From Escherichia coli (GTDB lineage Bacteria; Pseudomonadota; Gammaproteobacteria; Enterobacterales; Enterobacteriaceae), in assembly GCF_016903815.1 (NCBI RefSeq), contig NZ_CP069973.1: a stretch of DNA of 64,000 bases. The stretch is one strand, 5' to 3'. Below, in pieces: positions 33,219 to 51,256 of the stretch. The notes under the pieces were generated by a model that saw only the letters and a list, made by a program, of their open reading frames with translations, had not been told where the DNA came from and ran no database searches. Position numbers and translations under genes: made by a program. Numbering within the stretch: position 1 is the first letter of the stretch; every line of letters begins with the position of its first letter.

Positions 33219-33489
33219 GATGTTACCGTAGTATGTGAGTATCCATCGAATAGACACCAAGCAAAAAAGCTCCCGAAGGAGCCTTCATTTTCACTTTTTT
33301 AAATCCAACGACAGACGGCTGGCATTTAAGTATTGTGAAATATTATCAAATGTAATCATCATTGATTTACAAAAGATACATTTTGCCCCGAAAGGATTCA
33401 TGTCAGAAACATCAAAAGATGATGTTCTATACTGGGAACCATGACAACACGGGCATCTAAAGTGAATATGGTTTGTAATATTGTCTACC

Positions 33490-33702
33490 TCAAAGCGCCA
33501 CTACATGAACAGCGGCAGGACCTTTAGGTCCGTTCTCAATACCAAATTCAACTTCCTGATTCTCAGTTAATGTTTTGAAATCGTTGCTCTGAATTGCTGA
33601 GAAATGGACAAACACATCTTTGCTGCCATCTTTCGGCGTGATGAAACCAAAACCTTTTTCAGGGTTAAACCATTTCACTAAACCAGTCATTTTGTTAGAC
33701 AT
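33490..33702 (-). CDS. cspI: Cold shock protein CspI-like
   Basis: [23 protein letters not shown]... with RNP1 and RNP2 motifs. Confidence 0.85.
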
Positions 33703-34064
33703 AATTATTACCTTTTGAAGAAATTAGCCCTTGGGCAGAATGGTCCGAAAAAAAATATCAGAGAGAAAAACCAACAAGGAAATCTCAAGAGGTACAAATA
33801 ATAAAATTATAACAATGACTGCTTCAGATAAATTTGTAACAAACCAGAACACCATTAACGCATGATTAACCACCCATAGCAAGGATTACTTTTGTAAAGA
33901 AAAACACAGCAATGAAAGAATAGCTTTATTTATTAATAAAACGTGTCATTCTGATTAAGACCTTTTATCTTACCCTTAAGATTTCAGGAATTTTGGCTCA
34001 TGGAAGAGTCCTTTTTATTTAAATTTTACATTCCGCGATGTAAATGTTCCGATTTAATATTACC

Positions 34065-36119: not shown

Positions 36120-36810
36120 CTCTTACCAGCCGCGCCCTAACAGGCGCACACGATCTGACATTTGCATCCAACTTCGTTACTTACGGCCCGTAAACGGGCT
36201 GCCCGGATAGGGAATCGATAACTGCTCTCCCATTTTATCCTCTTCAAGCTGGTGCTTTATGTAATCCTGTATCTTCGCCGTGTTCTTACCCACTGTATCG
36301 ACGTAGTACCCTCTGCACCAGAACTCCCTGTTCCTGTATTTGAATTTCAAATCACCAAACTGCTCGTAAAGCATCAGACTGCTTTTCCCTTTCAGATATC
36401 CCATAAACCCGGATACGCTCATTTTGGGCGGGATCTCCACAAGCATATGGATATGATCTGCACAGCATTCAGCTTCCAGAATCCGTACGCTTTTCCACTC
36501 ACACAGCTTTCTCAAAATACTGCCTATTGCTCTACGCTTCTCTCTGTAGAACACCTGTCTTCGGTATTTTGGCGCAAAAACTATGTGATATTTACAGTTC
36601 CATCGGGTGTGCGCTAAGCTCTTTTCGTTCCCCATTGGGACCCCCTTTTGATTTCTTGTTTGACACTTGCAGTTGCCAGACCGCAAGGTGTTTTAACAAA
36701 TCAAAAGGGGTTTTAATAACTGGCTCAAAGCTGAAAGCTTTCCGGAACCCCCAGCCTAGCTGGGGGTTTTCTGTGCACAATAAAAAACCCGCCTGAGCGG
36801 GTTTGAGATT
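36120..36810 (-). mobile_element. IS200-like insertion sequence (approximate bounds)
   Basis: 152-aa Y1 transposase with hairpins upstream (acccccagcctagctgggggtttt, aacccgcctgagcgggttt); about 0.7 kb, typical of IS200. Confidence 0.55.
36177..36635 (-). CDS. tnpA: IS200/IS605-family transposase TnpA (Y1 HUH)
   Basis: MGNEKSLAHTRWNCKYHIVFAPKYRRQ...HIHMLVEIPPK...; HUH motif (HIHML) and catalytic Tyr region. Confidence 0.85.
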   Translation of the reverse strand: MGNEKSLAHTRWNCKYHIVFAPKYRRQVFYREKRRAIGSILRKLCEWKSVRILEAECCADHIHMLVEIPPKMSVSGFMGYLKGKSSLMLYEQFGDLKFKYRNREFWCRGYYVDTVGKNTAKIQDYIKHQLEEDKMGEQLSIPYPGSPFTGRK

Positions 36811-37085
36811 GTGGTGCTTTTTGTGGGAGTCATCCACTTACGCACTTTGTTTTGCCATGCCAGCAGTTAGCTTCTGCTGTAAAACTATTCATGCAGCAAA
36901 CCTGCACTTCACCACAATGGTTAGCATACTTTTCCTGATTAAGATTTTGCCAAATATGCTAGCCATTGTTTCATGTATTGGACCTCCTTACTTTTTATTA
37001 AAGAGATCCAATATTCACTACTCTGTCCGTATCTCTACTCAGGCATCAGCCTTCTTCGTTATCGTATACAGACGAGCGATGAATT

Positions 37086-37301
37086 TTAATCAGTAATGAT
37101 GACATTTGCTGCTGCAGGACCTTTAGCACCACTCTCTATAGAGAAGGTAACCTTTTGACCTTCAAATAAGGTTCGATAATTATCATTCTGAATCGCAGAA
37201 AAATGCACAAACACATCTTTACTACCATCAACAGGAGAAATAAAGCCGAAACCTTTATCAGCGTTAAACCATTTTACTAAACCAGTCATTTTATTTGACA
37301 T
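37086..37301 (-). CDS. cspB: Cold shock protein CspB-like
   Basis: [23 protein letters not shown]..., 71 aa. Confidence 0.85.
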
Positions 37302-37601
37302 TCTACATTCCTTAACTTGAGCCTTTCGGCATAAATGGTTTGCATAACAGAAACGACTTCGTACTTAATTGGAGAGACTCAAAGAAGGAATAAGTGAATA
37401 ACACCTGAAATGAGAACTGCTTTAGTAAACTACTTCGTATATCGTCTGTTCTTCAAACCGACGCAATCATTAACGCATAGTTGAACATATGAAGCAATGT
37501 TTATTTTAGACATCCAGCCATCTTCAACCCCATCAAAAAACTATAGCTTTCTTCAGGAACGTGTGTATAGTGCGCCAAGTTATCAGTATTAAGGAATTTT
37601 T

Positions 37602-38988: not shown

Positions 38989-39001
38989 GCTCGTTCTCCA
39001 C

Positions 39002-40090
39002 TTACGCCAGTACGCCAATTGTCAGCGCGCGATCGATAAAACGAAATATCAGCTCCAGTTGGGAGCCATACTTATCTTCAAATGCCACTGTATCCGTATG
39101 CAGCTCGTTGTGATGCTTTCTGCACAAAGGCAACACAAAGAGATCATGTGCTTTTGTTCCCATTCCGCCCTGCCCGTGACCAATCAGATGATGCGGATCG
39201 TCGGCTGGCATACCGCAGCAAGCACACGGCTGTGTCTTAACCCAACGTGTGTATTTCTCCTTAACCCAGCGGCGACGTTTAGGCAGCTTCATGAAAGATT
39301 CCGGAGACTCTGGATCAACGGTGATGCTTACCACCGTCTTTTCCTGTGGTGATTTTTGTTGCTGGTGGGCGTAAGGCAACGGTGCAAGATTTTTTGTGCG
39401 TTGTTTCAATATGCTGGTGGCGGTCTGCTCTCCCGGTACGATGTCGCTTTCGCGGTACACCGAGCAGATTTTTTCCGCTGGTAATCCCAGCGAACGACGC
39501 GATACAGCCTCAGGTAGTGCATCCACCACCTGATTGCAGACCGCCCACCAGGATAATTCAGCCAAAGATAATTCCCGCTCCTGCGTACCGCTTATTGCGT
39601 GACGGATGACGTCAATCACCCATGCTGTCAGATTTTGTTGAGCAAGCAGCTCCAGTGATTCCGATGTCTGGTCACGCAGTTGGTTGTCGCAGTGCCAGCA
39701 CAACACCATTGCGCCGGTACCATAACGGTGAATGACTGTTTCAGTGTGATGGTAATCGCCATTAGGCCACTGGCAGGATGTAACATGACGTAATAGCCAG
39801 TCGGACAATGCGCCAACGCCGCCAGCAGCACGAATCACCCGTTCGTTACTAAAAAACGGCAGCAATGTTTTGTCTTCCGCCAGCGGCTGGCGAACGGCAG
39901 GAACGACTCCGGATGGCAGATTACGCATGCTTTTTGGTTCCGGTTCCACCAGCACTCGAGGATTATGAAATATCTGTATGGATTCACGGCCCGGCTTAAG
40001 GACCACCAGCCCAAGCTCAGGCACCAGAACAGGTCTAAGTAATACCCGCACGTTACCTCCAGATCCGTTGCTGGAAAGTGCGGGACGCAC
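39002..40090 (-). CDS. ydfU: DUF968-family prophage protein YdfU-like
   Basis: 362-aa ORF with C-terminal Cys/His motifs (PCACCG...HHLIGHG...CRKHH), Qin ydfU position. Confidence 0.7.
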   Translation of the reverse strand: MRPALSSNGSGGNVRVLLRPVLVPELGLVVLKPGRESIQIFHNPRVLVEPEPKSMRNLPSGVVPAVRQPLAEDKTLLPFFSNERVIRAAGGVGALSDWLLRHVTSCQWPNGDYHHTETVIHRYGTGAMVLCWHCDNQLRDQTSESLELLAQQNLTAWVIDVIRHAISGTQERELSLAELSWWAVCNQVVDALPEAVSRRSLGLPAEKICSVYRESDIVPGEQTATSILKQRTKNLAPLPYAHQQQKSPQEKTVVSITVDPESPESFMKLPKRRRWVKEKYTRWVKTQPCACCGMPADDPHHLIGHGQGGMGTKAHDLFVLPLCRKHHNELHTDTVAFEDKYGSQLELIFRFIDRALTIGVLA

Positions 40091-40331
40091 GTGGTGGGCG
40101 TTCGGAATAAGGCAGCCTGACAGAGATTATCCAGTGCCGATAGTCGAGACTGAGAGCTTTCTTAACCTCGAACCCGCGCCTGCGGTAAGAATGAATCAGC
40201 CATTCGGCCTGTTCTGCAGTGCATGGAGGGTGCTGGAACCATTCAGACTTGAATGCGTGAGAATACCGCCCGTGCGTGCAGGCAAGAACGGGCGAATTAT
40301 CAGAATTGTAATATTTTGCGTTGCGTGCCAT
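40053..40331 (-). CDS. rem: Small prophage protein Rem-like
   Basis: 92-aa ORF downstream of the hok/rel cluster and upstream of ydfU. Confidence 0.5.
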   Translation of the reverse strand: MARNAKYYNSDNSPVLACTHGRYSHAFKSEWFQHPPCTAEQAEWLIHSYRRRGFEVKKALSLDYRHWIISVRLPYSERPPRASRTFQQRIWR

Positions 40332-40397
40332 CGGTTTTCTCCGGTGGCACGGTGTTACTCAGCGGGAGTTCAGCCCCGCGCAAGATTGTAGATGAGT

Positions 40398-40649
40398 TTA
40401 TTCTCCTGAAAAAGCAGAAAAGCCAGCTTTTATTCCGATCTCTTTCAATGCCTGTAATGAAGTGACAAACTCACCTTCGCGCAAGATAAATCCGTCCGTG
40501 ACCCGAGCATCCACAAAATTAATTAACGCAGCCCCATTCTTTCGCAAACACATAATGCGGTAATGACTAACAAGATTTCCATTTTCAACGCACACAGCAT
40601 AGAGGCCATCTTCACAAAAAATTTTACGCAGTTCTTCGATGTTCATCAT
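40398..40649 (-). CDS. Hypothetical small protein
   Basis: 83-aa ORF between hokD and rem; no family recognised. Confidence 0.4.
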   Translation of the reverse strand: MMNIEELRKIFCEDGLYAVCVENGNLVSHYRIMCLRKNGAALINFVDARVTDGFILREGEFVTSLQALKEIGIKAGFSAFSGE

Positions 40650-40865
40650 CAGAATCCTTCCGGATAATTAGCTCTCCCCTTTAAGGGACCATCCCTCTTA
40701 TCCCTGCGCGCTACTTAAGTATTTTTGATTCTATTCCGGCACCGTCCAGAACTTCAAACGCGTTGAAAATAAAAACAAAAACCCGCCGAAGCGGGTTAAG
40801 TGCGGGTGCGTTGAGGATGCCTGCCACATCAGAGGTGGCGAGGGATTTCTCCCCCGCCGGGTCTC

Positions 40866-41021
40866 TTACTCCTCAGGTTCGTAAGCTGTGAAGACAGCGA
40901 CCTCCGTCTGGCCGGTTCGGATTCGTACCTCGCAGAGGTCTTTCCTCGTTACCAGTGCCGTCACTATGACGGTTAAACAGATGACGATCAGGGCGATTAA
41001 CATCGCCTTTTGCTGCTTCAT
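40866..41021 (-). CDS. hokD: Hok-family toxin HokD (RelF)
   Basis: Minus-strand translation MKQQKAMLIALIVICLTVIVTALVTRKDLCEVRIRTGQTEVAVFTAYEPEE (51 aa), not in the ORF track. Confidence 0.85.
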   Translation of the reverse strand: MKQQKAMLIALIVICLTVIVTALVTRKDLCEVRIRTGQTEVAVFTAYEPEE

Positions 41022-41092
41022 AGCCTGCTTCTCCTGTCAACGCAAAGCAGAAGTGTCACCTTCGGTGCGAAACAGAGATGTCATGCTTTGGT

Positions 41093-41380
41093 TCAGAGAA
41101 TGCGTTTGACCGCCTCGCTATATACTTCCGAGCGTTCTCTTTTCCCAACAGAAATCACGAAAACGACAACTTTCTCGTCTATAACCTGGTATACAAGGCG
41201 ATAGCCTGAAGACCGGAGCTTAATCTTGTAACAATCAGGCATACCACGGAGCTTGTTTGCTTCAATCCGGGGTGACTCAAGTACTTCAACCAGCTTCTTT
41301 TTCAACTGTTCACGTACCGTCGAGCCCAGCTTTCGCCATTCCTTTAGTGCCCGCTCGTCAAAATCCAGAAAATACGCCAT
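41093..41380 (-). CDS. relE: mRNA interferase toxin RelE
   Basis: MAYFLDFDERALKEWRKLGSTVREQLKKKLVEVLE..., 95 aa. Confidence 0.9.
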   Translation of the reverse strand: MAYFLDFDERALKEWRKLGSTVREQLKKKLVEVLESPRIEANKLRGMPDCYKIKLRSSGYRLVYQVIDEKVVVFVISVGKRERSEVYSEAVKRIL

Positions 41381-41619
41381 CAGAGTTCATCCAGCGTCAC
41401 ACGTACTGGCTTAGGATTACGAAGCCGTTCTTTCACTATCTCCACAAGTTCAGCATCTTCATCACTCAGGAGTGTCTGTTTGAACGGCAAGCGTTCATTG
41501 TCAGCGATATACTCGAGCATGAGACGAAGCGCTTCAGAAGGAGTTACACCCATTTTTTCAAGCGCGGCGTAAGAACGCGCTTTAAGTTCATCGTCAATAC
41601 GCAGGTTAATGCTACCCAT
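41380..41619 (-). CDS. relB: Antitoxin RelB
   Basis: MGSINLRIDDELKARSYAALEKMGVTPSEALRL..., 79 aa; 1-nt overlap with relE. Confidence 0.9.
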   Translation of the reverse strand: MGSINLRIDDELKARSYAALEKMGVTPSEALRLMLEYIADNERLPFKQTLLSDEDAELVEIVKERLRNPKPVRVTLDEL

Positions 41620-41643
41620 GTCTTACACCTCTTGTAATTACAA

Positions 41644-41949
41644 ATGTCATTACAAGTATCGCACTACAACATGCTTAGGGCAAGTCACGAAGGAAGTCAG
41701 AAAGTAGTCGTAAGAACGGTGATCACTGTCCGCTTTGTGCCAGGAGCAGCCATTGCTAAGTCCATCCTGTATTGTGCAGGTCAGCTCGTTTTTAAAGAGT
41801 CCGGCCATCATCTTACTGGTACAGACACCATATACTTTGTGACGGTCAGGCTACATATGCACAACTCAACTTATTCATCTATTTTTTGCTTTAGCATGTC
41901 AGTGTTGCTTTCTCGTCGGCGGGTGAGCGGTGACCTGACCTGTCGATAA
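41644..41949 (+). CDS. ydfV: Hypothetical protein, YdfV-position
   Basis: 101-aa ORF between relB and flxA; positional assignment only. Confidence 0.4.
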   Translation: MSLQVSHYNMLRASHEGSQKVVVRTVITVRFVPGAAIAKSILYCAGQLVFKESGHHLTGTDTIYFVTVRLHMHNSTYSSIFCFSMSVLLSRRRVSGDLTCR

Positions 41950-42151
41950 AGGAACGTAACACGTTTTATGCAACACCCGCATGCGGCAGAAAATTATTGC
42001 CGAACGTTTACCCCTGTCAACAAGCTTTACTTTCTGAGGCGCGCCAGCCCGCGAGGAAAACAATCTGAACATCAAACAATTAATGACACAAGAAATACGA
42101 TTAAAGATTTTTTTGTGCATGCCGATAGTGCTTTTTTAAAAGGAGAAATCT

Positions 42152-42484
42152 ATGTCTGTCACAATTCAGGGAAATACCTCAACCGTTATTTCAAACAACT
42201 CCGCCCCGGAAGGAACATCAGAAATAGCCAAAATCACAAGACAAATTCAGGTGCTGACTGAAAAGCTTGGGAAAATCTCATCGGAAGAGGGGATGACGAC
42301 ACAGCAGAAAAAAGAAATGGCTGCATTGGTACAGAAGCAAATTGAAAGCCTCTGGGCTCAACTGGAGCAGTTGTTAAGGCAGCAGGCAGAGAAAAAGAAT
42401 GAAGACGCGACAGTTCAGCCTGATAAAAAAGAAGAGAAAAAAGACGATACAAATACCGCTGGCACCATTGATATTTACGTCTAA
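42152..42484 (+). CDS. flxA: FlxA-like protein
   Basis: 110-aa ORF MSVTIQGNTSTVISNNSAPEGTSEIAKITRQIQVLTEKL... Confidence 0.8.
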   Translation: MSVTIQGNTSTVISNNSAPEGTSEIAKITRQIQVLTEKLGKISSEEGMTTQQKKEMAALVQKQIESLWAQLEQLLRQQAEKKNEDATVQPDKKEEKKDDTNTAGTIDIYV

Positions 42485-42879
42485 GTGACAGCCGTATTGT
42501 GGCCCTCATCGGGCCACTTTTCGCCATCAGCCTTTTCTTTAAAGACATATTATCTTTGTATCATTTCTGATAGTTAACATTACAAGATATAAGTAATGGA
42601 CGCACTCCCAATTAGTCTATTTAAATCGCCACGAGTTTAACTGACAACCCATGATCAATTATGAATTGCAACTATTTCTGTAGTCACTTTTGTGGGGACA
42701 GTCCACAAAACTGCCAACTTCCGCTTCTTGCTCTTAGCGGACATTAGCATAGGCTATTTACCATAACGCCTCATTACGCGCACCGCCCAGACTGACTCAG
42801 CGCGTTTCTGGCATATCCCCGGTAAAACAAGTAACAAACCACCCGAAAATGAACACCAGAAACGCGACTTAAGAATCTA

Positions 42880-44300
42880 CCCTATGAATGGATATGCACT
42901 CAACCGAATCGATCTTGGTTTCAATCTTTTTTATCGGGATCAGGCTTCTTTTTAGGTAACTTCGGGGGCTTAACTTGCTGATGACTTTGCGTTCGGCGCG
43001 TAAGCCAGGGATGGTCAGCTTTAGGTTTAACATAGTATTTTGAGCGTAAATCAATACGGGCATTATCCACTCGTTCATGGACACTCTTTTCATCATCCAG
43101 TGGTATAGGCTCCGGGCCATCAACATACTTTTCCCAGCCCAGCGCTTTCCCGTCATACAGAACGTTAATTTCACCGTCAAAGTTCTCGCATACAGTAACA
43201 ACCGAATGCCTAAGTCGATATCCCCGGCCCTCACTGCGTACCTGAAACGCACTGCTTTTGTACTGGAAAGTGAGATTTTTAGACAGAACGCGCTTCGCCT
43301 GTAGGCTGAAGATATAACCCAGTTCCTCTTCAGAATGGTGCACATCAAGATGAGCATTATCAGTAGTACGAGGCGACGTAGCGAACCGGTTGTTATAGGC
43401 TTCAATAAAGGTCGGCAACCATGCATTTGCTGTTTCAATATCACTGATATTCTGAAGCCGCATTTCTTTGACCAGCCTGTCCTGTAGTGTCTGATTGGCG
43501 CGCTCTACCCGCCCTTTTGCCTGCGGGCTGTTGGCATGGATTGGCTCGATGCCCAGTGTCTTTATCGCACGAGTGAACTGGGTCAGCTCACCTTCCCGCT
43601 CTGGGTTATTTACCCTGAATATACTGTGTCTATCAGAGTAGAGAGCGAGCGGTACGCCATGATCATTAAGGTAACCCCGGAGGGTTTCCATGTAAGCCCG
43701 GGTTGTTTCAGCAGGCACAAAACGCAACGCCATCAACGCACTGGTGGCATCATCAATGAAAACGATCAGTGTACATCTGGGGCCTCGATTTTCAAACCAG
43801 TCATGAGGTGAGCCATCAATCTGGATCAGTTCACCGTAAGATGGTCGTCGCATGCGGCGTTGATATATACGGGCAATTTTACGACGGCGTTCACGCCATA
43901 ACCCCTCTTCTATCATCCACTTTCTGAGAGTTTCAACGGATAAAGATAAACCGTGTATCTCGCGCAATTTTTCGCACGCAAACGTAGGTCCAAAATCAGC
44001 GTAACGGCCTTTGAGGAGTGAAATTACTGTTGCTCTGAATTCAGTAGAAAAGGAATTATTAGGACGCTTTCCACGTCGGTGGGAAACCAGACCAGAAGGC
44101 CCTTCATTTCTATACCGTTGCACCAGACGTTTAACCTGCCGAATAGAAATGCCAATGCGTGCCGCAGCTTGTTCCTGAATAATCTGAAGTCGGTGGAGTT
44201 CCTTATGACTCATCGTAACAGTCTCTTTGATCATGAAAAATCCCCCAGAGAATTGTCTGGGGACATTTTAGAATGGTTCAAAGGGGACATTACAGCTTGG
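42880..44300 (-). mobile_element. IS element with rve-type DDE transposase (IS481-family-like; ends not resolved)
   Basis: Single long transposase ORF; terminal inverted repeats could not be defined by eye. Confidence 0.4.
42921..44213 (-). CDS. DDE transposase, HTH plus integrase-core (rve) domain
   Basis: MSHKELHRLQIIQEQ... N-terminal HTH, central DDE-like core, Lys/Pro-rich tail. Confidence 0.75.
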   Translation of the reverse strand: MSHKELHRLQIIQEQAAARIGISIRQVKRLVQRYRNEGPSGLVSHRRGKRPNNSFSTEFRATVISLLKGRYADFGPTFACEKLREIHGLSLSVETLRKWMIEEGLWRERRRKIARIYQRRMRRPSYGELIQIDGSPHDWFENRGPRCTLIVFIDDATSALMALRFVPAETTRAYMETLRGYLNDHGVPLALYSDRHSIFRVNNPEREGELTQFTRAIKTLGIEPIHANSPQAKGRVERANQTLQDRLVKEMRLQNISDIETANAWLPTFIEAYNNRFATSPRTTDNAHLDVHHSEEELGYIFSLQAKRVLSKNLTFQYKSSAFQVRSEGRGYRLRHSVVTVCENFDGEINVLYDGKALGWEKYVDGPEPIPLDDEKSVHERVDNARIDLRSKYYVKPKADHPWLTRRTQSHQQVKPPKLPKKKPDPDKKD

Positions 44301-44717
44301 TGTTAACAATAGCCTGCTTCTCCGTGCCTTTCGGCACGTAAGAGGCTAACCTACATGTGTCTAGCATGAAATTGGCCTCAGATTAATGTTAAGCGTCTTG
44401 CAGGACGCGTAATGTTAACTGGGGCTTTTCTCTATCTGCCTTTGGTGTTCGTGCCCGAGGCAGATAGCCTCAAGCACCCGCCGTGATTCTACAAAAACAT
44501 TACCCACCTTTCCAGCAATTCACAACAACTCCATGCAAATAGTAAGTAGAATAATAAGTTATTAGTATTAGCAATTTACTTAGTTTCTAATTTGTGCCAA
44601 TGATTTTCATTTTTGCATGAAAAATACCTTAACATTTTATATTTACTTACTATTTGTAAGCCCCATCAGTTCTTTCTGATGGCGGCTGGTATTTCAGTTC
44701 CAGATATAGTATATGCT

Positions 44718-45746
44718 TTACGCCTTAATAGGGTTAATCACATTTCCGCTATCCGTACCATAGTATTTTTTTGTAGTCATGCCTTGTTTATAATAATCAT
44801 TTAACAGTTTGAGAAAGTTTCTTCCTTGCCTCTCATCTTCTATGACTAATTTACCATGCTCATTGGTCTTAAACTCTTCGTTCTGAAACATTTTTAGCAC
44901 ATCATTCATAGCTTGAACATCATTCTTTTCCAGAACCGTATGGTTACCTTTCTCAGCGATATGAGTGAGAATTTTTCTCAGTGATGGCTTATGAAGAATA
45001 GCTTGTTCAATAACATCTAAACCTTCAATAAGATCAAGTTCTTTAATTGTATTTAATGTTTTTTGTGCAGCTTCTGTAAACTCAACCTCCAAGCCTACAA
45101 TAGCCTCAAAACTTTTCTTATGAAATACATAAAATTGATCTTTTATATAAATACAATCGATTTTGTCATCAAAATTGACTGCGCTGCCATCAAATGATCT
45201 TAACTCTTTATCTGTTTTATCAAACAAAGCGAATACGCGCTGAGTCATATTTTGTGGTTCATTTGTTGTGACTTTCCCCCTGCTGATTTTTCGGAAAGAA
45301 TAAGTGACGTCAGCCCCCTTTTGGACTTTAATACAATAGGCCCACAAATCATTCTGAACCTCAGCAAGAGAGGTAAGTACAACTGGTTTATCATTCTTTA
45401 TATCGTTATTAATAACTTTTGAAAACGATATCGCGTTATTCATAGCATAGGCATAAATTTTATTATCAATATCATCATCAATAACAGTATGCTTTTTCAT
45501 CACAATATCATCTTTCGAAGCATGAGAAATAATCTGGTTTGATAAAGTATACTTAAAAAATTTAGCAATATCTGGAGCGATTGGAGCTTTAATGATTTTA
45601 AAATCGAATTTATCAACAACTCTTGCGGTTCTACTCATACCCGCTTTAAGATGTCTAGTAATGAAATACAACGATATTTTCGCCGCATCATCATCCTTAA
45701 GTTGCTCAGCATACTCTAATAATTCTTCAAGCTTTAACATTTTCAT
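44718..45746 (-). CDS. Soluble partner protein of candidate defense operon (KwaB-like by architecture, unverified)
   Basis: 342-aa Lys/Asp-rich AT-rich ORF; start overlaps the stop of the upstream membrane-protein gene (ATGA). Confidence 0.5.
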   Translation of the reverse strand: MKMLKLEELLEYAEQLKDDDAAKISLYFITRHLKAGMSRTARVVDKFDFKIIKAPIAPDIAKFFKYTLSNQIISHASKDDIVMKKHTVIDDDIDNKIYAYAMNNAISFSKVINNDIKNDKPVVLTSLAEVQNDLWAYCIKVQKGADVTYSFRKISRGKVTTNEPQNMTQRVFALFDKTDKELRSFDGSAVNFDDKIDCIYIKDQFYVFHKKSFEAIVGLEVEFTEAAQKTLNTIKELDLIEGLDVIEQAILHKPSLRKILTHIAEKGNHTVLEKNDVQAMNDVLKMFQNEEFKTNEHGKLVIEDERQGRNFLKLLNDYYKQGMTTKKYYGTDSGNVINPIKA

Positions 45747-46357
45747 TCCTTATGGGATTCAGCATAAAAAAGTTTTGGGCCCACGTCCTCAACATCAAGA
45801 AGATCATCTTCCTCCAAATACTTTGATTTAGTCAAAACCATACCAGTGCGTTTTTTGTCGCTTTCTAAATCCAAATATGTAACTTGATATAAAGTATAAT
45901 TAATACTTATTGTAGGATTTATAAGTATCATGCTTGAATTAATATATATTAAAGCCGTTACCGTTAACAATATTGCTATAGGTATAACATTAGTTAAAGT
46001 GGATAGATCCTGAAATACAAACGGAATTATATATGTAAAAAGATAGCTTATTGATTCATTGTTTTTATTTTCAATATCTATAACTCTTACAGTTCTACCA
46101 CTAGTGGCGCATCGACGTTTTATATTTTTTAAAAAAATTGTTAATCCTACAATACCAAATAATGATAATACACCAATGACACTGACCGCGCCAAAGTATT
46201 TAAAGAAAATAGTTAATGATTCAACACTTATACCTTTCCAATTTAAATAGCTTCTATAAGTATACAATTGCACAAAACACATGATAAAGAATAGGGGAAG
46301 GTATGACACTATAAATAGCGAAACTCTAGCACCTAAATGTAGTTTATTTACTCTCAT
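45743..46357 (-). CDS. Four-helix membrane protein of candidate defense operon (KwaA-like by architecture, unverified)
   Basis: 204-aa ORF with four hydrophobic stretches (about residues 12-32, 55-76, 103-115, 124-140) and an acidic C-terminal tail. Confidence 0.5.
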   Translation of the reverse strand: MRVNKLHLGARVSLFIVSYLPLFFIMCFVQLYTYRSYLNWKGISVESLTIFFKYFGAVSVIGVLSLFGIVGLTIFLKNIKRRCATSGRTVRVIDIENKNNESISYLFTYIIPFVFQDLSTLTNVIPIAILLTVTALIYINSSMILINPTISINYTLYQVTYLDLESDKKRTGMVLTKSKYLEEDDLLDVEDVGPKLFYAESHKE

Positions 46358-46565
46358 AACTACCCCACAGCCTACACGTCTAGTATTTTATGTTATTTCG
46401 AATAATTATGCATCAGATTACCATCCTACAATTGTGCATAAAACGAGCATTTTGCTGATTTTTCTGCGGATGCCTGAGACAGACAACCTCAAGCACCCGC
46501 AGCAATTTTACTTAACTCCCGCTACCTCGCCAATATGAAATCAATAAGAAAGGTGCTCCATAAAA

Positions 46566-47252
46566 TCACTCCTTCTCTTCTTTATCGTAGTGGAGTTGAC
46601 CAATTTTGATAAGAGGGCGTCCCTGAGATTTGCGGTGTAGATTGGTATCGCGCAGAGAATACACACAGCCACAATATTCCTGCTGATAGAATTTTTCGCG
46701 CTTGCTGATTTCAATCATGCGGGACGAGCCGCCCTGCTTGCGCCAGTTATAATCCCAGTACACCATGCCCGGATAATGCGCGACGGCTCGCCGCCCACAG
46801 TCGTTAACCTGCTGCATATTTTTCCAGCGTGAAATGCCCAGTGAACTGCTGATCACACTGAAACCATTTTCAGCAGCGTACAGCGCTGTCCGCTCAAAAC
46901 GCATGTCAAAACACATGGTACAACGGATCCCCCTCTCGGGCTCCCATTCCATTCCTTTGGCACGTTCAAACCAGTTGTCTGTGTCGTAATCAGCATCAAT
47001 AAATGGCACGCCGTGTTGTTCAGCAAAGCGAATATTCTCATCCTTACGAATTAAATACTCTTTCTGAGGATGAATGTTCGGGTTGTAGAAAAAGATGGTA
47101 TAGTCGATTCTCGAGGCCTGAAGTGCCTCCATCACTTCACCGGAACATGGAGCACAGCAAGAGTGCAGTAGTAGTTTGTTTGCCCCGTTTGGGAGCTCCA
47201 ATTTAGGCCGTTTGAAATCAGCAATAGTCATAAATATTTTTATTGGGGTCAT
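46566..47252 (-). CDS. DUF208 / QueH-like protein (putative epoxyqueuosine reductase family)
   Basis: [11 protein letters not shown] and FFYNPNIHP motifs plus additional Cys (CTMC, CGC) as recalled for the QueH/DUF208 family. Confidence 0.6.
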
Positions 47253-47433
47253 AAAAATAGCACAGAGTGTGGCATCAGAGCAGGGCTATCGGGAATAGAT
47301 GTCTAAATCTGGTAATATCTGCTTTTGACGCATAGCAGACAACCACGCTAGCTCAATCCTGTGCCGTGAAAATGTCAATTCACATCTGAACTAATGCTCT
47401 TTAATCTAGTTACGTCTATAAATAACGAAAATT

Positions 47434-47832
47434 TCACTGATAAAATGCCAGTATGCGCTGCATAACTTCGCTCTTCCGGCACTCACAGCAAATTATGTTT
47501 TGGTGCCTGTCATAACGACGTATTTCTCCGTCAGGTAATGACCAGATAAGGTCCGGATCAACCACAGATGTTTTCTTCACCTTTGCCCTCGAGAGTTTTT
47601 TGCGGGCGTTTTGCCAGTCCTTACGAGCCTGTTCAGACGGGAATAACCCGTAGCCAGAGTTATATACATCACCACTGGCAACCAGCTCTCTGGCGAGAAC
47701 GCTCATCAGATATCTTGTCGCACCTGTCTTGGCTTCCAGTTGCCGTAACGTCTCGCGCCCACTCCGGCGTACTAGCTCAACAACCTGCCCCTTGATTTTT
47801 TCCCGCTCTTCTTGTGTAAAAACTTTTGCCAC
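47434..47832 (-). CDS. Hypothetical prophage protein
   Basis: 132-aa basic ORF downstream of the replication initiator, with a CCEC motif; no family recognised. Confidence 0.4.
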   Translation of the reverse strand: MAKVFTQEEREKIKGQVVELVRRSGRETLRQLEAKTGATRYLMSVLARELVASGDVYNSGYGLFPSEQARKDWQNARKKLSRAKVKKTSVVDPDLIWSLPDGEIRRYDRHQNIICCECRKSEVMQRILAFYQ

Positions 47833-47872
47833 AAGTCCCCCTTAAAATTACCTCATGACCTGAAATCAAAAC

Positions 47873-48838
47873 TTATCCTCTGAAACCAGGCGGAATTTCT
47901 GTATCCGGTTCAGAAATATGATTAACACAACGCTGTACAGGTGAACGCCCCAGGCGGATGACCAGTTCGTCCCATTTTTCGCGGAGCTTTGACGGGCTCA
48001 TGATGTTTTTTACCCAGAATGGATCCCGCTGTACCCGACCAAACATTTCACAAATTTGTCTGTGACTTCTGCCATCCAGCATCCGCATTGTGCGCACATC
48101 ATTGGCCCAGACAGTCCAGTTAGGCTCTTTTGGTCGCATGATCTCGCCATCATCACTGGCGGCCTGTTCGTAGAGACCCACGATCCGCCCCCATATCCAC
48201 TGCGCACACGCCAGATCCTCCTGGCTACCCCACTGGCGTTTTTTCGCACTAAACACAACTGCGCCAGGGTGCCGGATTAAAAAATCCTGTTCAGCCGTCT
48301 GCGGGTCCGGTTGCGAAGCTTCCGGACGAAAAGTGTTTTTATTCTCTGTAGTAATCTCTGTTGTATTCTCTGTAGGATCATCGGGCCATTTTGACCCGAT
48401 GACATTGGGTCGTTTTGAACCAATGGAGCGTTTCATTTTGACCTCTTCCATCGTGTCATTTTGACCTGATGGAGCGGCGCATTTTGAACCGATGGATTCG
48501 CTCAATTTGCCATCATCTAAAAGCTCGCTCCCATAGTTAATCGTGTAGAAATTGGTCATATCGCGCTTTGATTTATTGAGCTTTTCACAACGCAAAAGCC
48601 CCAGCGTTTTCAGACTTGCAAACGCGCGCTTTAACGTTGACTCTGACCAGAATGGGAACTGTTCCAGCCATTGTTCCGTTGTGTTGTAAATCCAGCGAAC
48701 ACCATCACATTCCATGCCGGAATTGGTATCTCTCAACCAGTAATGCAACTGCTGCAACACAATGGCTTCATTTAAGCCAATCTTCATCGCAAGCTGTGTG
48801 TTTATAACCAGTGGGCGTTCAGCAAAAAGAAGGCTCAT
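47873..48838 (-). CDS. Replication initiator (lambda O-like replisome organizer) containing ori iterons
   Basis: N-terminal replisome-organizer-like region; internal 23-bp iterons encode repeated SIGSK motifs; start uncertain (48892 or 48838). Confidence 0.65.
   Translation of the reverse strand: MSLLFAERPLVINTQLAMKIGLNEAIVLQQLHYWLRDTNSGMECDGVRWIYNTTEQWLEQFPFWSESTLKRAFASLKTLGLLRCEKLNKSKRDMTNFYTINYGSELLDDGKLSESIGSKCAAPSGQNDTMEEVKMKRSIGSKRPNVIGSKWPDDPTENTTEITTENKNTFRPEASQPDPQTAEQDFLIRHPGAVVFSAKKRQWGSQEDLACAQWIWGRIVGLYEQAASDDGEIMRPKEPNWTVWANDVRTMRMLDGRSHRQICEMFGRVQRDPFWVKNIMSPSKLREKWDELVIRLGRSPVQRCVNHISEPDTEIPPGFRG
48385..48500. repeat. Origin iterons: five direct repeats at 23-bp spacing
   Basis: Core (a/g)ttttga(c/a)c at 48388, 48412, 48435, 48458 and 48481, inside the initiator gene as in lambda ori. 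Confidence 0.65.
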
Positions 48839-49340
48839 AATTCCATCCAGCTTTTTGTTGGTATTGCTGTCGATACGCAAGCTTGAAAGCAATTGCTTTT
48901 TCTATAAGTTCGTCAGTTTCACGATCCACTACGGCAGGATCAGCAAAAAGCAGTCCGGACTCCACCACATCGCCATATTCTTTGTTTAACCCGGCGATCA
49001 TGCACGTGATGCTTTTTCCGTCAGTAATTTCACGATACAACCTGAAATCACTAATCCGGATAGCCTCCATAATCGCAGGCACTAGCGCCGTGAACTTTTC
49101 ACGCTTATCCCTGGTGTCGATAGCCTTCCAGCGTTCGAATATCTTCACTCGATTAACGCCAAGCGCTCGCTGATCAACCGCGCCACCTTCATCTGTGACA
49201 CGCTGAACATCGATGTTCGGGCGCTCTTTCAAAGCCCAGAATGCTTCAGTGATTAATATCGTCGCCTGCTCCTGTGTCATTCCTGGTCGACATATCCAGG
49301 CATCCAGAGCCTCACGAGCCTGTTCAGGAGTGATTTTCAT
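48819..49340 (-). CDS. Hypothetical early-region protein (YdaT-position)
   Basis: 173-aa ORF directly downstream of the cro-like dicC. Confidence 0.45.
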   Translation of the reverse strand: MKITPEQAREALDAWICRPGMTQEQATILITEAFWALKERPNIDVQRVTDEGGAVDQRALGVNRVKIFERWKAIDTRDKREKFTALVPAIMEAIRISDFRLYREITDGKSITCMIAGLNKEYGDVVESGLLFADPAVVDRETDELIEKAIAFKLAYRQQYQQKAGWNYEPSFC

Positions 49341-49554
49341 TGTTCAACCGCCCCGCCCGCTTCGTCTTACGATATTCATCATAAACTTTGGGATCATACT
49401 GAAGCTCCCCGCCAGATGCCTCCTGTAGACGCATCGCGCGACCTTCAGGAACCAGTATCCCCCAAGCAGCAACACTTGCCAGCCTCACTCCTGCGGCATT
49501 GGCAAGCTTTGTTTTGCTGCCAAAAAAAGTAATTGCGTCAACTTTAAGCATCAA
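49324..49554 (-). CDS. dicC: Cro-like repressor DicC
   Basis: 76-aa ORF ...FFGSKTKLANAAGVRLASVAAW...LVPEGRAMRLQEASGGELQYDPKVYDEY...; divergent from dicA. Confidence 0.85.
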   Translation of the reverse strand: MMLKVDAITFFGSKTKLANAAGVRLASVAAWGILVPEGRAMRLQEASGGELQYDPKVYDEYRKTKRAGRLNNENHS

Positions 49555-49563
49555 AGCCCCCTC

Positions 49564-49582
49564 TTGTTAGACTTTTCTAACA
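49564..49582. promoter_or_regulatory. Operator palindrome in the dicC-dicA divergent promoter region
   Basis: ttgttaga-cttt-tctaaca inverted repeat. Confidence 0.6.
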
Positions 49583-49631
49583 TTATTGTGCGCGGGATAC
49601 CTAAGTCAAGAAAAATTAGAATTACCTAACT

Positions 49632-50039
49632 ATGGATACAAGAACCCTGGGCCAGCGAGTTCTGGCGCGACGAAAAGAATTACGCTTAACACAACGAGAA
49701 GCCGCGCGCCTCGCTGGAGTTGCTCACGTCACAATTTCACAATGGGAAAGAGACGAAACCCAGCCAGTCGGAAAACGATTGTTTGCTTTAGCGGATGCTC
49801 TGAAGTGCTCACCTACATGGCTAATGTTTGGTGACGAAGACAAGGCACCAGTGCCTGCACAAGAACTTCATGTGGAAACAGAGCTAACTCCCAACCACAA
49901 AGAATTGATCGAATTATTCGATGCTCTTCCATCTTCCGAGCAGGAAGCCTTGCTGTCTGAAATGCGCGCAAGAGTAGAAAACTTCAACAAACTCTTCGAA
50001 GAAATGCTTAAAGCGCGTAAAAATAAATCAATAAAATAA
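49632..50039 (+). CDS. dicA: HTH-XRE repressor DicA
   Basis: 135-aa ORF ...LTQREAARLAGVAHVTISQWERDETQPVGKRLFALADALKCSPTWLMFGDED... Confidence 0.9.
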   Translation: MDTRTLGQRVLARRKELRLTQREAARLAGVAHVTISQWERDETQPVGKRLFALADALKCSPTWLMFGDEDKAPVPAQELHVETELTPNHKELIELFDALPSSEQEALLSEMRARVENFNKLFEEMLKARKNKSIK

Positions 50040-50074
50040 CATTCTTTTCAAGTGATTAGTTGCGTCCACCCTTT

Positions 50075-50128
50075 TTGTTAGATCAATCTAACAAAAAACA
50101 CTTGCCTCTCATGTTAGGTTATTCTAAA
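50075..50128. promoter_or_regulatory. Two operator-like palindromes at the dicB-operon promoter
   Basis: ttgttaga-tcaa-tctaacaa (50075..50094) and tgttag-gttat-tctaaa (50112..50128) between dicA and ydfA. Confidence 0.6.
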
Positions 50129-50207
50129 TTATTTTCCATCAAGACACCGCACGGTGTTCTCAGCAAACAGTTCCGCTACCCCGGCGTTAAGGGGAAATGA
50201 GGTCAGC

Positions 50208-50363
50208 ATGGATACTATCGATCTTGGCAACAACGAATCTCTGGTGTACGGCGTGTTTCCAAACCAGGACGGCACGTTCACCGCAATGACGTATACCAAA
50301 AGCAAAACGTTTAAAACCGAAAATGGTGCCCGTCGCTGGCTGGAAAGAAACTCAGGTGAGTGA
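50208..50363 (+). CDS. ydfA: Small prophage protein YdfA
   Basis: MDTIDLGNNESLVYGVFPNQDGTFTAMTYTKSKTFKTENGARRWLERNSGE (51 aa). Confidence 0.8.
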   Translation: MDTIDLGNNESLVYGVFPNQDGTFTAMTYTKSKTFKTENGARRWLERNSGE

Positions 50364-50364
50364 T

Positions 50365-50940
50365 ATGGATTTCGACACAATCATGGAAAAGGCTTACGAA
50401 GAATACTTCGAAGGCCTTGCCGAAGGCGAAGAAGCTCTCAGCTTCAGTGAGTTTAAACAGGCACTCAGAATAAGAATGTGCTCTCACAATGACGCGGAGC
50501 ACAAATATGAGAAGCAAAATCAGACCGCAGAAAATTTTGTTCTGGAACCCGGAGAAACGCTTTTCAAAATTCCCGTTACGTGCCCCATTTGCGGTTTTAC
50601 ATCAGAAGAACTTGACGACTCCTGTAACAATCAGGAAACAACCAAGTATGTCGAAGATGATACCGAGTGCGCACGAAGAACGATTATATCCACGAGTCCA
50701 AACTCCAGGACCAATAAATCTCACTTTGAGAGGGTGATTAATCCACTCCCCCAAACCAATAAAAAAGATGCCGGAGGACAAAAAACCCAATGGAACAACG
50801 GGATATCTGTCAAAAAAAGACGTTCCATTAAAGACAAACAACGCAGCGCCAACAACTGTAAGCGCTTTATACCAGTAATCAATTTTCATGTTCTTAAGCG
50901 GATTTATTGGTGGTTGCGACATTGCTTAATGAATCCTTAA
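50365..50940 (+). CDS. YdfB/YdfC-region protein, continuous 191-aa reading frame
   Basis: Starts MDFDTIMEKAYEEYFEGLAEGEE (YdfB-like); with zinc-ribbon-like CPICG and basic C-terminus. Confidence 0.5.
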   Translation: MDFDTIMEKAYEEYFEGLAEGEEALSFSEFKQALRIRMCSHNDAEHKYEKQNQTAENFVLEPGETLFKIPVTCPICGFTSEELDDSCNNQETTKYVEDDTECARRTIISTSPNSRTNKSHFERVINPLPQTNKKDAGGQKTQWNNGISVKKRRSIKDKQRSANNCKRFIPVINFHVLKRIYWWLRHCLMNP

Positions 50941-51198: not shown

Positions 51199-51256
51199 TT
51201 TTCTGGTGACGTTTGGCGGTATCAGTTTTACTCCGTGACTGCTCTGCCGCCGTTTT
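51199..51256 (+). ncRNA. dicF: DicF small regulatory RNA
   Basis: tttctggtgacgtttggcggtatcagttttactccgtgactgctctgccgcc followed by a T-run; matches the DicF sequence from memory. Confidence 0.8.

Follow-up and report, generated by a model that had tools for sequence, protein, structure and literature searches.

The hokD-relBE region examined here lies on contig NZ_CP069973.1 of Escherichia coli (assembly GCF_016903815.1), within a stretch of 64,000 nucleotides that was analyzed as a whole (the window). On the minus strand the order is relB, relE, a 71-nt spacer, hokD (relF), an intrinsic terminator and rem; in RefSeq, the genes of identical Qin prophage DNA are named rem, hokD, relE and relB, and at least 80% of the block is present in about 1,100 of 5,426 complete genomes. 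The locus, like its genes, was already known: it is the relBEF operon carried by the Qin prophage of E. coli. Comparison with related prophages and plasmids indicates that the relB-relE-hokD arrangement was very probably created by a transposon insertion that split a prophage hok/sok locus, that the strain of the window keeps the whole structure, and that the element targets the start region of hok genes. The region contains the following features (aa, amino acids; ORF, open reading frame).

40398-40649, minus strand: rem, an 83-aa ORF, "protein Rem" in RefSeq (PHROG 340, 4.4e-21)
40780-40797, minus strand: intrinsic terminator of the hok transcript, now of relBEF, AACCCGCTTCGGCGGGTT followed by a T-run
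40804-40816, minus strand: fbi (fold-back) element CCTCAACGCACCC in the hokD 3′ untranslated region, complementary to GGGTGCTTGAGG at 44479
40866-41021, minus strand: hokD (relF), 51 aa (Pfam HOK_GEF, 1.2e-23; PHROG 251, 2.8e-33)
41093-41380, minus strand: relE, ribosome-dependent mRNA interferase toxin (Pfam ParE_toxin, 2.2e-13; relE in RefSeq)
41380-41619, minus strand: relB, antitoxin (Pfam RelB, 1e-32)
41631-41656, minus strand: palindromic operator region of the relBE promoter, CTTGTAATGACATTTGTAATTACAAG, read directly from the sequence

A previous description of this DNA, made from its letters without database searches (the sequence-only reading), had reported an intact 51-aa Hok-family toxin adjoining relB-relE. 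This was confirmed: the HOK_GEF match of hokD reaches 82.9 bits against a cutoff of 22, which identifies a Hok/Gef family toxin ORF, and all four ORFs are present at the stated coordinates, on the minus strand. The hokD protein is identical to WP_000813254.1, RelB and RelE are identical to WP_000534858.1 and WP_000323025.1, respectively, and the relB stop overlaps the relE start (ATGA). The palindrome at 41631-41656, where the consensus promoter scan made no call, is presumably the relBE operator, according to the established knowledge of relBE autoregulation. The start context of hokD consists of GGAG, a 9-nt spacer and ATG, and was left so by the target-site duplication (TSD) described below. 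Folding of the relE-hokD junction revealed no significant structure (z = -1.48), a result that neither supports nor opposes occlusion of the Shine-Dalgarno sequence.

The same reading expected a sok-like antisense RNA and a mok frame upstream of hok, and stated that they could not be delineated; next to hokD they are indeed absent. The Rfam search gave no sok match in 39500-43000 (E <= 1), no promoter-like site was found between relE and hokD on either strand, and homology to the intact hok locus breaks at 41035, 14 nt 5′ of the hokD ATG. A hok leader with its sok region was found instead 3.3 kb upstream, at 44309-44514, outside the interval previously considered.

41020-41034, minus strand: TSD copy 2, GGAGAAGCAGGCTAT, spanning the Shine-Dalgarno sequence of hok and the AT of its start codon
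44309-44323, minus strand: TSD copy 1, GGAGAAGCAGGCTAT, forming a perfect 15-nt direct repeat with copy 2
44309-44479, minus strand: orphaned hok mRNA leader (Rfam RF01794 "sok", 105.6 bits, E = 1.5e-24)
44486-44514, minus strand: hok promoter-like site (TGGAAA, 17-nt spacer, TAGAAT), with transcription start near 44479
44324-44432, plus strand: putative sok gene (-35 GTGCCT at 44324-44329, -10 TAACCT at 44347-44352, RNA from about 44359 to a T-run at 44421-44432)

The RF01794 match, obtained in a scan of the whole window (44308-44479; gathering threshold 59), spans the full model. Since the RF01794 consensus starts at the hok mRNA 5′ end, GGGUGCUUGAGG, and reaches as far as the hok AUG, the match corresponds to the hok leader that is overlapped in antisense by sok; the placement of the hok promoter-like site agrees with its first base. 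The leader carries the hok 5′ end (tac), an upstream ATG at 44367 and the sok-overlapped region, and it ends in GGAGAAGCAGGCTAT, exactly the same 15 nt as those that stand, 3,289 bp away, immediately before the G in the ATG of hokD. The consensus promoter scan made no sok call, and the putative sok gene was placed by analogy with the architecture of sok in plasmid R1. The sequence-only reading had proposed to look for a sok promoter and for fold-back elements: the latter is represented by fbi at 40804-40816, while a candidate for the former lies, by the same R1 analogy, at 44324-44352. Permissive Rfam searches also returned sub-threshold isrK and rsmX matches near hokD, which correspond to hairpins of the hok 3′ untranslated region and its terminator and not to sok; the isrK-like match (40776-40857, minus strand; 25 bits against a threshold of 50) is most likely a structural resemblance only.

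The two halves fit together exactly. When 3,289 bp were deleted in silico, joining 44720-44309 to 41019-40380, the resulting 1,052 nt gave a single gapless match, with 97.5-98.8% identity, to a locus that is uninterrupted in 39 E. coli genomes and is annotated there as KwaB-like gene, hokD and rem; compared with E. coli 746, the rejoined sequence has no indels and differs at 13 positions. Over both 39000-41035 and 44309-50721 the window is collinear with the prophage of that strain, and the orphan 5′ half differs from an intact relative (L003) by one mismatch in 412 nt. This sole difference falls in the -35 hexamer of the putative sok gene (44324-44329, plus strand), which is GTGCCT in the window and TTGCCT in L003. 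The hok terminator sequence is found in L003 as well, and the minimum free energy fold of the intact L003 mRNA closes the 5′ end onto the fbi sequence CCTCAACGCACCC (-175.1 kcal/mol, z = -7.7). This tac-fbi pairing is seen only in the intact L003 mRNA, as the tac partner at 44479 is absent from the relBEF transcript. The upstream ATG of the intact relative is in frame with hok and opens a 70-codon ORF; no coupled mok-type frame precedes hokD. In plasmid R1 the upstream ATG opens a separate, overlapping mok frame, unlike in the lineage of the window.

These comparisons indicate that a single hok/sok locus has been split by an insertion, with its promoter, leader, upstream ATG and sok region stranded at 44309-44514. 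hokD is the 3′ half only of a type I locus, of which it keeps the ORF, the fbi element and the terminator; neither a sok gene nor a structured leader lies directly 5′ of it, both being 3.3 kb away, and it lacks its usual antisense control because a relBE-carrying transposon inserted at the hok start site. The sequence-only reading had named a hok gene that lacks upstream mok/sok elements and is untranslatable as what would speak against it: the adjacent region does lack these elements, but hokD is not thereby untranslatable, because the Shine-Dalgarno sequence and the ATG were preserved by the target duplication.

The inserted element has the following anatomy.

41035-44308, minus strand: whole transposon, 3,274 bp, bounded by inverted repeats and the 15-bp duplication
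44283-44308, minus strand: left terminal inverted repeat TGTTAACACCAAGCTGTAATGTCCCC, the exact 26-mer used to recover further loci
42921-44234, minus strand: IS1202-family (ISEsa1-like) transposase, 437 aa (NCBIfam transpos_ISNCY_2, 456 bits, cutoff 250)
41747-42715, no strand assigned: variable cargo, flxA plus most of the ydfV ORF, replaced in L099
42152-42484, plus strand: flxA (Pfam FlxA, 2.3e-14)
41644-41949, plus strand: ydfV ORF, with no match in Pfam, NCBIfam or PHROGs
41035-41746, minus strand: conserved right-end module (relBE promoter, relB, relE, right repeat), common to all cargo variants
41035-41060, minus strand: right terminal inverted repeat (...GGTGACACTTCTGCTTTGCGTTGACA), with 19 of 26 bases matching the left repeat

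RefSeq names the transposase "IS1202-like element ISEsa1 family transposase", and the ISEsa1 assignment is based on this name and on the table in PMC10132070. The terminal repeats, 44308-44283 against 41035-41060, match at 16 of 22 and 19 of 26 bases, both ends contain a further, subterminal ATGTC motif, and the element is flanked by the perfect 15-bp duplication expected of a target site. relB and relE read outward through the right end, with flxA and ydfV on the opposite strand. The right module is 98.5-98.9% identical in two loci, L007 and L099, whose other cargo differs, and the whole unit is found with 99.4-99.8% identity on plasmids of Enterobacter asburiae, E. roggenkampii, E. cloacae, E. 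kobei, Salmonella enterica and E. coli. The copy of the window differs from that of an Enterobacter plasmid (L004) by five substitutions and one 27-bp indel; compared with the plasmid copies, this is an in-frame deletion of 9 aa (SINRHITQE) at about 44178, element position 131, near the transposase N-terminus. Both length classes, 3,274 and 3,301 bp, occur in metagenomes.

Two further observations concern the inside of the element. The ydfV ORF, which runs antisense across the relB promoter and is only partly contained in the conserved right module, is unlikely to be a real gene. Just 5′ of the transposase ATG, a hairpin with a T-run after it (TCCCCAGACAATTCTCTGGGGG ATTTTT; 44242-44263, minus strand) overlaps the ribosome-binding site. 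This hairpin could block transposase expression by read-through from outside, for instance from the hok promoter; since it covers the ribosome-binding site, simple read-through from the hok promoter is disfavored as the way in which the transposase is driven.

The same arrangement recurs in other hok loci, where the left end of the element adjoins the hok leader and the same right end adjoins the hok ORF.

Window: Qin prophage, hokD, duplication GGAGAAGCAGGCTAT, 3,274 bp
L004: Enterobacter IncF plasmid, R1-like hok, duplication GGAGAAGAAGGCCAT, 3,301 bp
L005: Salmonella IncI plasmid, pndA-like hok, duplication TGGAGGGGCTATGAT, 3,301 bp
L099 (516-13358): Phytobacter IncF plasmid NZ_AP018757, hok, duplication GGAGAAGTCAGCTAT, 12,843 bp

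In these four loci the 15-bp duplication is perfect on both sides; in some metagenome loci it measures 16 bp. The junction follows the AT, sometimes the ATG, of the hok start codon, and the orientation is constant. In the Phytobacter plasmid, the left module with the transposase and the right module (equivalent to window 41746-41035) enclose ncrYCBA, chrBA and other genes, about 10.5 kb with ncr (nickel) and chr (chromate) resistance genes in place of the flxA/ydfV segment. As the left and right modules surround different cargo at the same hok position and in the same orientation, it follows that the element targets the hok translation-initiation region. Reconstructed empty sites exist as well: that of the IncI plasmid matches plasmids such as NC_002122 in one piece, with 100% identity across 500 nt, and at least 80% of it is present in 1,792 plasmids; that of the Phytobacter plasmid is 98.4% identical in three plasmids.

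Scans of genomes, metagenomes and viral contigs for exact matches to the 26-nt left end identified 91 further loci, and all loci together have 33 distinct left flanks. Of these flanks 23 scored as hok-leader-like, a figure in which L007 is counted through its hok-type 15-mer alone; in L027, L040 and L055, too, the sequence beside the junction is of hok type. At least nine different hok-type targets of 15-16 bp were found, and the 15-mer is repeated exactly in 36 of the 40 loci that have the right end on the same contig. L007 (2183-2257) and L055 contain tandem junctions of right repeat, 15-mer and left repeat, where the regenerated target appears to have been hit again, giving rise to tandem arrays. 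Taken together, these loci indicate that insertion repeatedly builds relBE-hok hybrid operons.

After the conserved left module of 1.6 kb, three different cargo starts were seen, and none of the recovered loci has the right repeat directly after this module. In L006 and L008, CGTTTGGTTGACG had been considered as the right repeat of a short 1.6-kb insertion sequence (IS); this was dropped because L099 reveals it to be the start of the 10.5-kb ncr/chr cargo, the true right end, with the duplication, being 12.8 kb away. In most targets a small hairpin (TGCC-GAAA-GGCA or equivalent; 44325-44336 in the window) ends 16-17 nt before the junction, and the non-hok target L008 carries CGCCC-gct-GGGCG at exactly 16 nt before it. 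As a lead only, this hairpin may be the feature recognized by the transposase; it is reminiscent of the dif palindromes hit by other IS1202-family members.

The course of events would be as follows. An ancestral prophage hok/sok locus, placed between a KwaB-like gene and rem, would have received a 3,274-bp IS1202-family (ISEsa1-type) DDE transposon composed of left repeat, transposase, flxA/ydfV, relB, relE and right repeat. The 15-bp staggered cut spanned the Shine-Dalgarno sequence of hok together with the AT of its start codon, so that both halves carry GGAGAAGCAGGCTAT. In this way hokD has kept its start codon with the ribosome-binding site, and on the 3′ side the fold-back element and the terminator, and has lost its own promoter, 5′ leader, mok-equivalent upstream start and Sok target. 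Because its 5′ part was cut off by a transposon with outward-facing relBE, hokD is now the third cistron of the relBE transcript, transcribed only from the RelB/RelE-autorepressed relBE promoter within the transposon, and this transcript can end at the hok terminator; the relBE promoter is the only one upstream of hokD on the minus strand. The old hok promoter, leader and sok region lie 3.3 kb upstream, pointing into the transposase gene.

Published data on K-12 agree with this transcriptional organization. Probes for relB, relE and relF detect one transcript by northern blotting, the relBEF mRNA is abolished on deletion of the relBE promoter, and the relF part of the transcript accumulates after toxin cleavage (PMC3598666); in the literature relBEF is thus a single, RelB/RelE-autorepressed and stress-induced transcript. 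RelF/HokD is toxic when over-expressed (bioRxiv 10.1101/2025.08.07.668861). HokD translation would no longer be gated by mok coupling, by Sok or by the tac-fbi switch, and would be set by the amount of relBEF mRNA. By analogy with the R1 promoter, sok may still be transcribed, with hokD no longer its target. As to the benefit for the element, hok loci may serve as marks of plasmids and prophages, the resident killer would be silenced and not unleashed, and relBE would replace its addiction function.

Other histories were weighed against an insertion into the Qin hok/sok locus itself. The one with most to recommend it, although a somewhat unlikely course, is that Qin acquired the insertion by recombination with another hokD-type locus, such as that of a related prophage, in which the element was already present. 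Several hokD-type leader variants (cacGGAG, caaGGAG and two others) carry the same insertion, which fits a spread among related prophages; this would alter the history only, and neither the anatomy nor the mechanism. In any case the hokD-specific duplication places the primary event in a hokD-type locus.

A broader form of this idea, that the element has no specificity for hok, entered a hok locus once and then spread by homologous recombination between hok flanks, is improbable. The copies are 99.4-99.8% identical, common plasmid hok loci offer homology, and one hybrid is known: L092 combines a left flank of pnd type with a right flank of hokD type, and seems to derive from recombination between two occupied hok loci. 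On the other hand, the at least nine different 15-16-bp targets are duplicated exactly on both sides wherever both ends are on the contig, and such exact duplications are not expected from recombination; in addition, the hok genes hit (hokD, R1-like hok, pndA-like) differ greatly in flanking sequence, and three targets have exact empty sites.

Two complete and independent modules in tandem, as proposed by the sequence-only reading, with mok and sok hidden in the 71-nt relE-hokD spacer or within relE, have hardly any probability left. What holds of that proposal is that the ORFs are intact and adjacent, with a good Shine-Dalgarno sequence before hok; a 55-aa ORF with a TTG start (40873-41040) also overlaps hokD in the frame that mok occupies in R1. 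Against it, this overlapping frame is closed by a TAG in the intact relative, whose upstream ATG is in frame with hok, and the spacer, in addition to having neither sok match nor promoter-like site, is the right end of the transposon, starting where intact-hok homology ends (41035) and identical on unrelated plasmids; hokD is the 3′ half of a split locus, not a self-contained module.

It is just as hard to believe that the 5′ fragment (44309-44479) and hokD are remnants of two different hok loci sharing a conserved ribosome-binding site: these regions are alike across the family, as with GGAGAAGAAGGCCAT in R1-type loci, but the halves rejoin without gaps into the locus contiguous in the 39 genomes, prophage genes on both flanks are collinear with the intact relative, and the repeat is exact and bounded by matching inverted repeats.

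The insertion of a hok-targeting transposon, which we prefer, has several points against it. All the evidence is comparative and no transposition was observed. The relE-hokD junction is devoid of significant structure (z = -1.5) that would speak for or against a translation of HokD from the relBEF mRNA; the sok promoter assignment comes from the R1 architecture, and its -35 hexamer has a T-to-G change in the window. The transposase copy of Qin in the window, with nine residues missing near the N-terminus, may be immobile or inactive. Seven of the 33 left flanks are not hok-like (L008, L011, L023, L033, L039, L049, L058), which means either a strong preference for hok or a later rearrangement of some flanks; at one of these non-hok sites, L058, the element is full-length and its duplication reaches 6 bp at most (CGCCTT). 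Finally, the 15-bp duplications conflict with the published "no TSD" for the 1,609-bp definition of ISEsa1, and a shorter, autonomous ISEsa1 form may exist besides the long unit.

Regarding the last point, the IS1202 family has been defined in PMC10132070 (Microb Genom 2023), where relatives of ISAjo2 target dif and the published members target dif/pdif; hok is not mentioned in that paper. ISEsa1 is listed there, after ISfinder, as a separate subgroup with no known target, with 1,609 bp, 15 of 22 matching repeat positions and "no TSD detected". The element of the window resembles the family (ISAjo2 group, ISKpn21, ISEsa1) in its transposase, in its imperfect repeats of about 22-26 bp, in its orientation-specific insertion beside a short conserved site and in having passenger genes, as some members do (transporter IS); duplications of 16-17 bp have been published for one IS1202 subgroup (PMC10132070). 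Unlike the published ISEsa1, the unit of the type found in the window measures 3.3 to 12.8 kb and ends only at a distal repeat on the far side of relBE; its duplications are 15-16 bp long, and its preferred target is the hok start region. If, as these loci suggest, the mobile unit usually runs as far as that repeat, the missing duplication of ISEsa1 would be explained. On balance, we consider it reasonably probable that ISEsa1-type elements are a site- and orientation-specific transposon family that prefers the hok translation-initiation region, possibly through the hairpin 16-17 bp before the junction, with relBE as conserved outward end; each insertion would free hok from Sok control, put the toxin ORF under RelB/RelE-repressed transcription, leave an orphan sok and swap type I for type II addiction on plasmids and prophages, with cargo from flxA up to 10 kb of metal-resistance genes; K-12 relBEF would be a decayed scar of such an event, and the published absence of a target duplication would reflect a mis-delimited right end.

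The K-12 locus is very close to that of the window. Window 39000-43105 is 99.98% identical to a K-12-type record, and the two share the RelB, RelE, HokD and Rem proteins as well as the 71 nt between relE and hokD; the K-12 derivatives J53 and ET12567 are among the K-12-type matches. The difference is a 5.96-kb deletion: window 43106-49060 is absent and the match resumes at 49061, so that K-12 has lost the left repeat, two-thirds of the transposase gene from its 5′ end, the hok leader orphaned in the window together with the sok region, and the KwaB-like gene; what remains of the transposase in K-12 is a C-terminal stub, ydfW. Because this deletion removed the 5′ half, the origin of relBEF is invisible in K-12 and hokD appears there only as "rearranged".

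Inactivation of hokD "by genomic rearrangements" is an older view, summarized in PMC12214031. According to PMC6379469, where Ramisetty & Santhosh (2016) are cited, an ancestral hokD of about 70 codons was reduced to 51 codons through the integration of plasmid-derived relBE. The 70-codon length agrees with the ORF of the intact relative, and relBE integration into hokD is, by this second-hand citation, already published; the citing text in PMC6379469 is silent on an IS1202-family transposase, inverted repeats, the 15-bp duplication, the surviving sok half and recurrent hok targeting. A full-text literature search returned no paper linking IS1202, ISNCY or ISEsa1 with hok, and no description of the transposon, its duplication or its hok preference was found in the searchable literature.

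The split locus shares with canonical hok loci (R1 hok/sok, parB) the Hok/Gef ORF, the leader recognized by Rfam and the terminator, and the tac-fbi pairing is found in the intact relative; it differs from R1 hok/sok in being split at the start codon, with hokD devoid of an adjacent promoter, leader or sok. In K-12, hokA, hokC and hokE are inactive chromosomal hok loci associated with IS elements (PMC12214031). They resemble the present case as type I toxin loci disrupted by a mobile element. The IS elements at these three loci belong to other IS families, and we know of no report that any of them carries a type II module or re-wires hok into another operon.

The remaining observations concern the neighboring prophage genes. 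The 83-aa ORF, for which the sequence-only reading recognized no family, is the named gene rem (PF27490, PHROG 340), of unknown function. It has 138 homologs, and the 120 listed all have a precomputed PF27490 match; all are from prophages of Escherichia, Shigella or E. albertii. Rem had no match in the local Pfam copy, and the Pfam and NCBIfam scans yielded nothing meaningful for Rem, for a 92-aa ORF or for ydfV; a SocB match in these scans (E = 0.0099) was dismissed, having 14.9 bits against a cutoff of 210. An AlphaFold2 model of Rem, based on a 26-sequence alignment, was too poor for a fold search (mean predicted local distance difference test 48, predicted template modeling score 0.29); the alignment has little diversity because the homologs are confined to Escherichia, Shigella and E. 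albertii. rem lies between the hok terminator and the ydfU-ydfT (Q antiterminator) genes, and it is found 3′ of hok also in prophages without relBE, such as the intact relative L003. Since it follows hok even where relBE is absent, it is a gene of the lambdoid prophage backbone, outside both toxin-antitoxin modules. The 92-aa ORF, annotated as hypothetical (40053-40331, minus strand), is placed between rem and ydfU, overlaps the start of this DUF968 gene and belongs to PHROG 1212 (1.7e-35), of unknown function.

On the other side, a low-GC gene of 342 aa (44718-45746, minus strand) lies directly upstream of the orphan hok leader and has a below-cutoff match to NCBIfam KwaB (1.1e-15). In the intact relative, a 204-aa hypothetical protein is coded 5′ of the KwaB-like gene and could be KwaA; the two could thus represent a Kiwa-like defense gene pair beside hok/sok in the prophage, deleted in K-12. 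Further above-threshold Rfam matches in the prophage are two cspA thermoregulator leaders, STnc490 and DicF (33463-33848, 36645-36768 and 37070-37462, minus strand; 51201-51252, plus strand).

The absence of sok and mok next to hokD is answered by a structure outside the coordinates first considered, and a hok-targeting, relBE-tailed transposon family was not found described in the searchable literature. The union of hokD (relF) and relBE, textbook toxin genes, had so far been left as an unexplained "rearrangement" and now has a mechanical explanation and a recurrence. The element would seek type I toxin start sites, disarm these toxins without deleting them and bring in a type II module of its own, a concrete example of how one addiction system takes the place of another. 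Within the IS1202 family, the ISEsa1 subgroup gains the target and the duplication length that the literature says are lacking, and cargo for nickel and chromate resistance is moved by the element between plasmids of Enterobacter, Phytobacter, Salmonella and E. coli. For E. coli, relBE deletion and expression studies in K-12 also affect hokD, and strains differ in the presence of the orphan sok.

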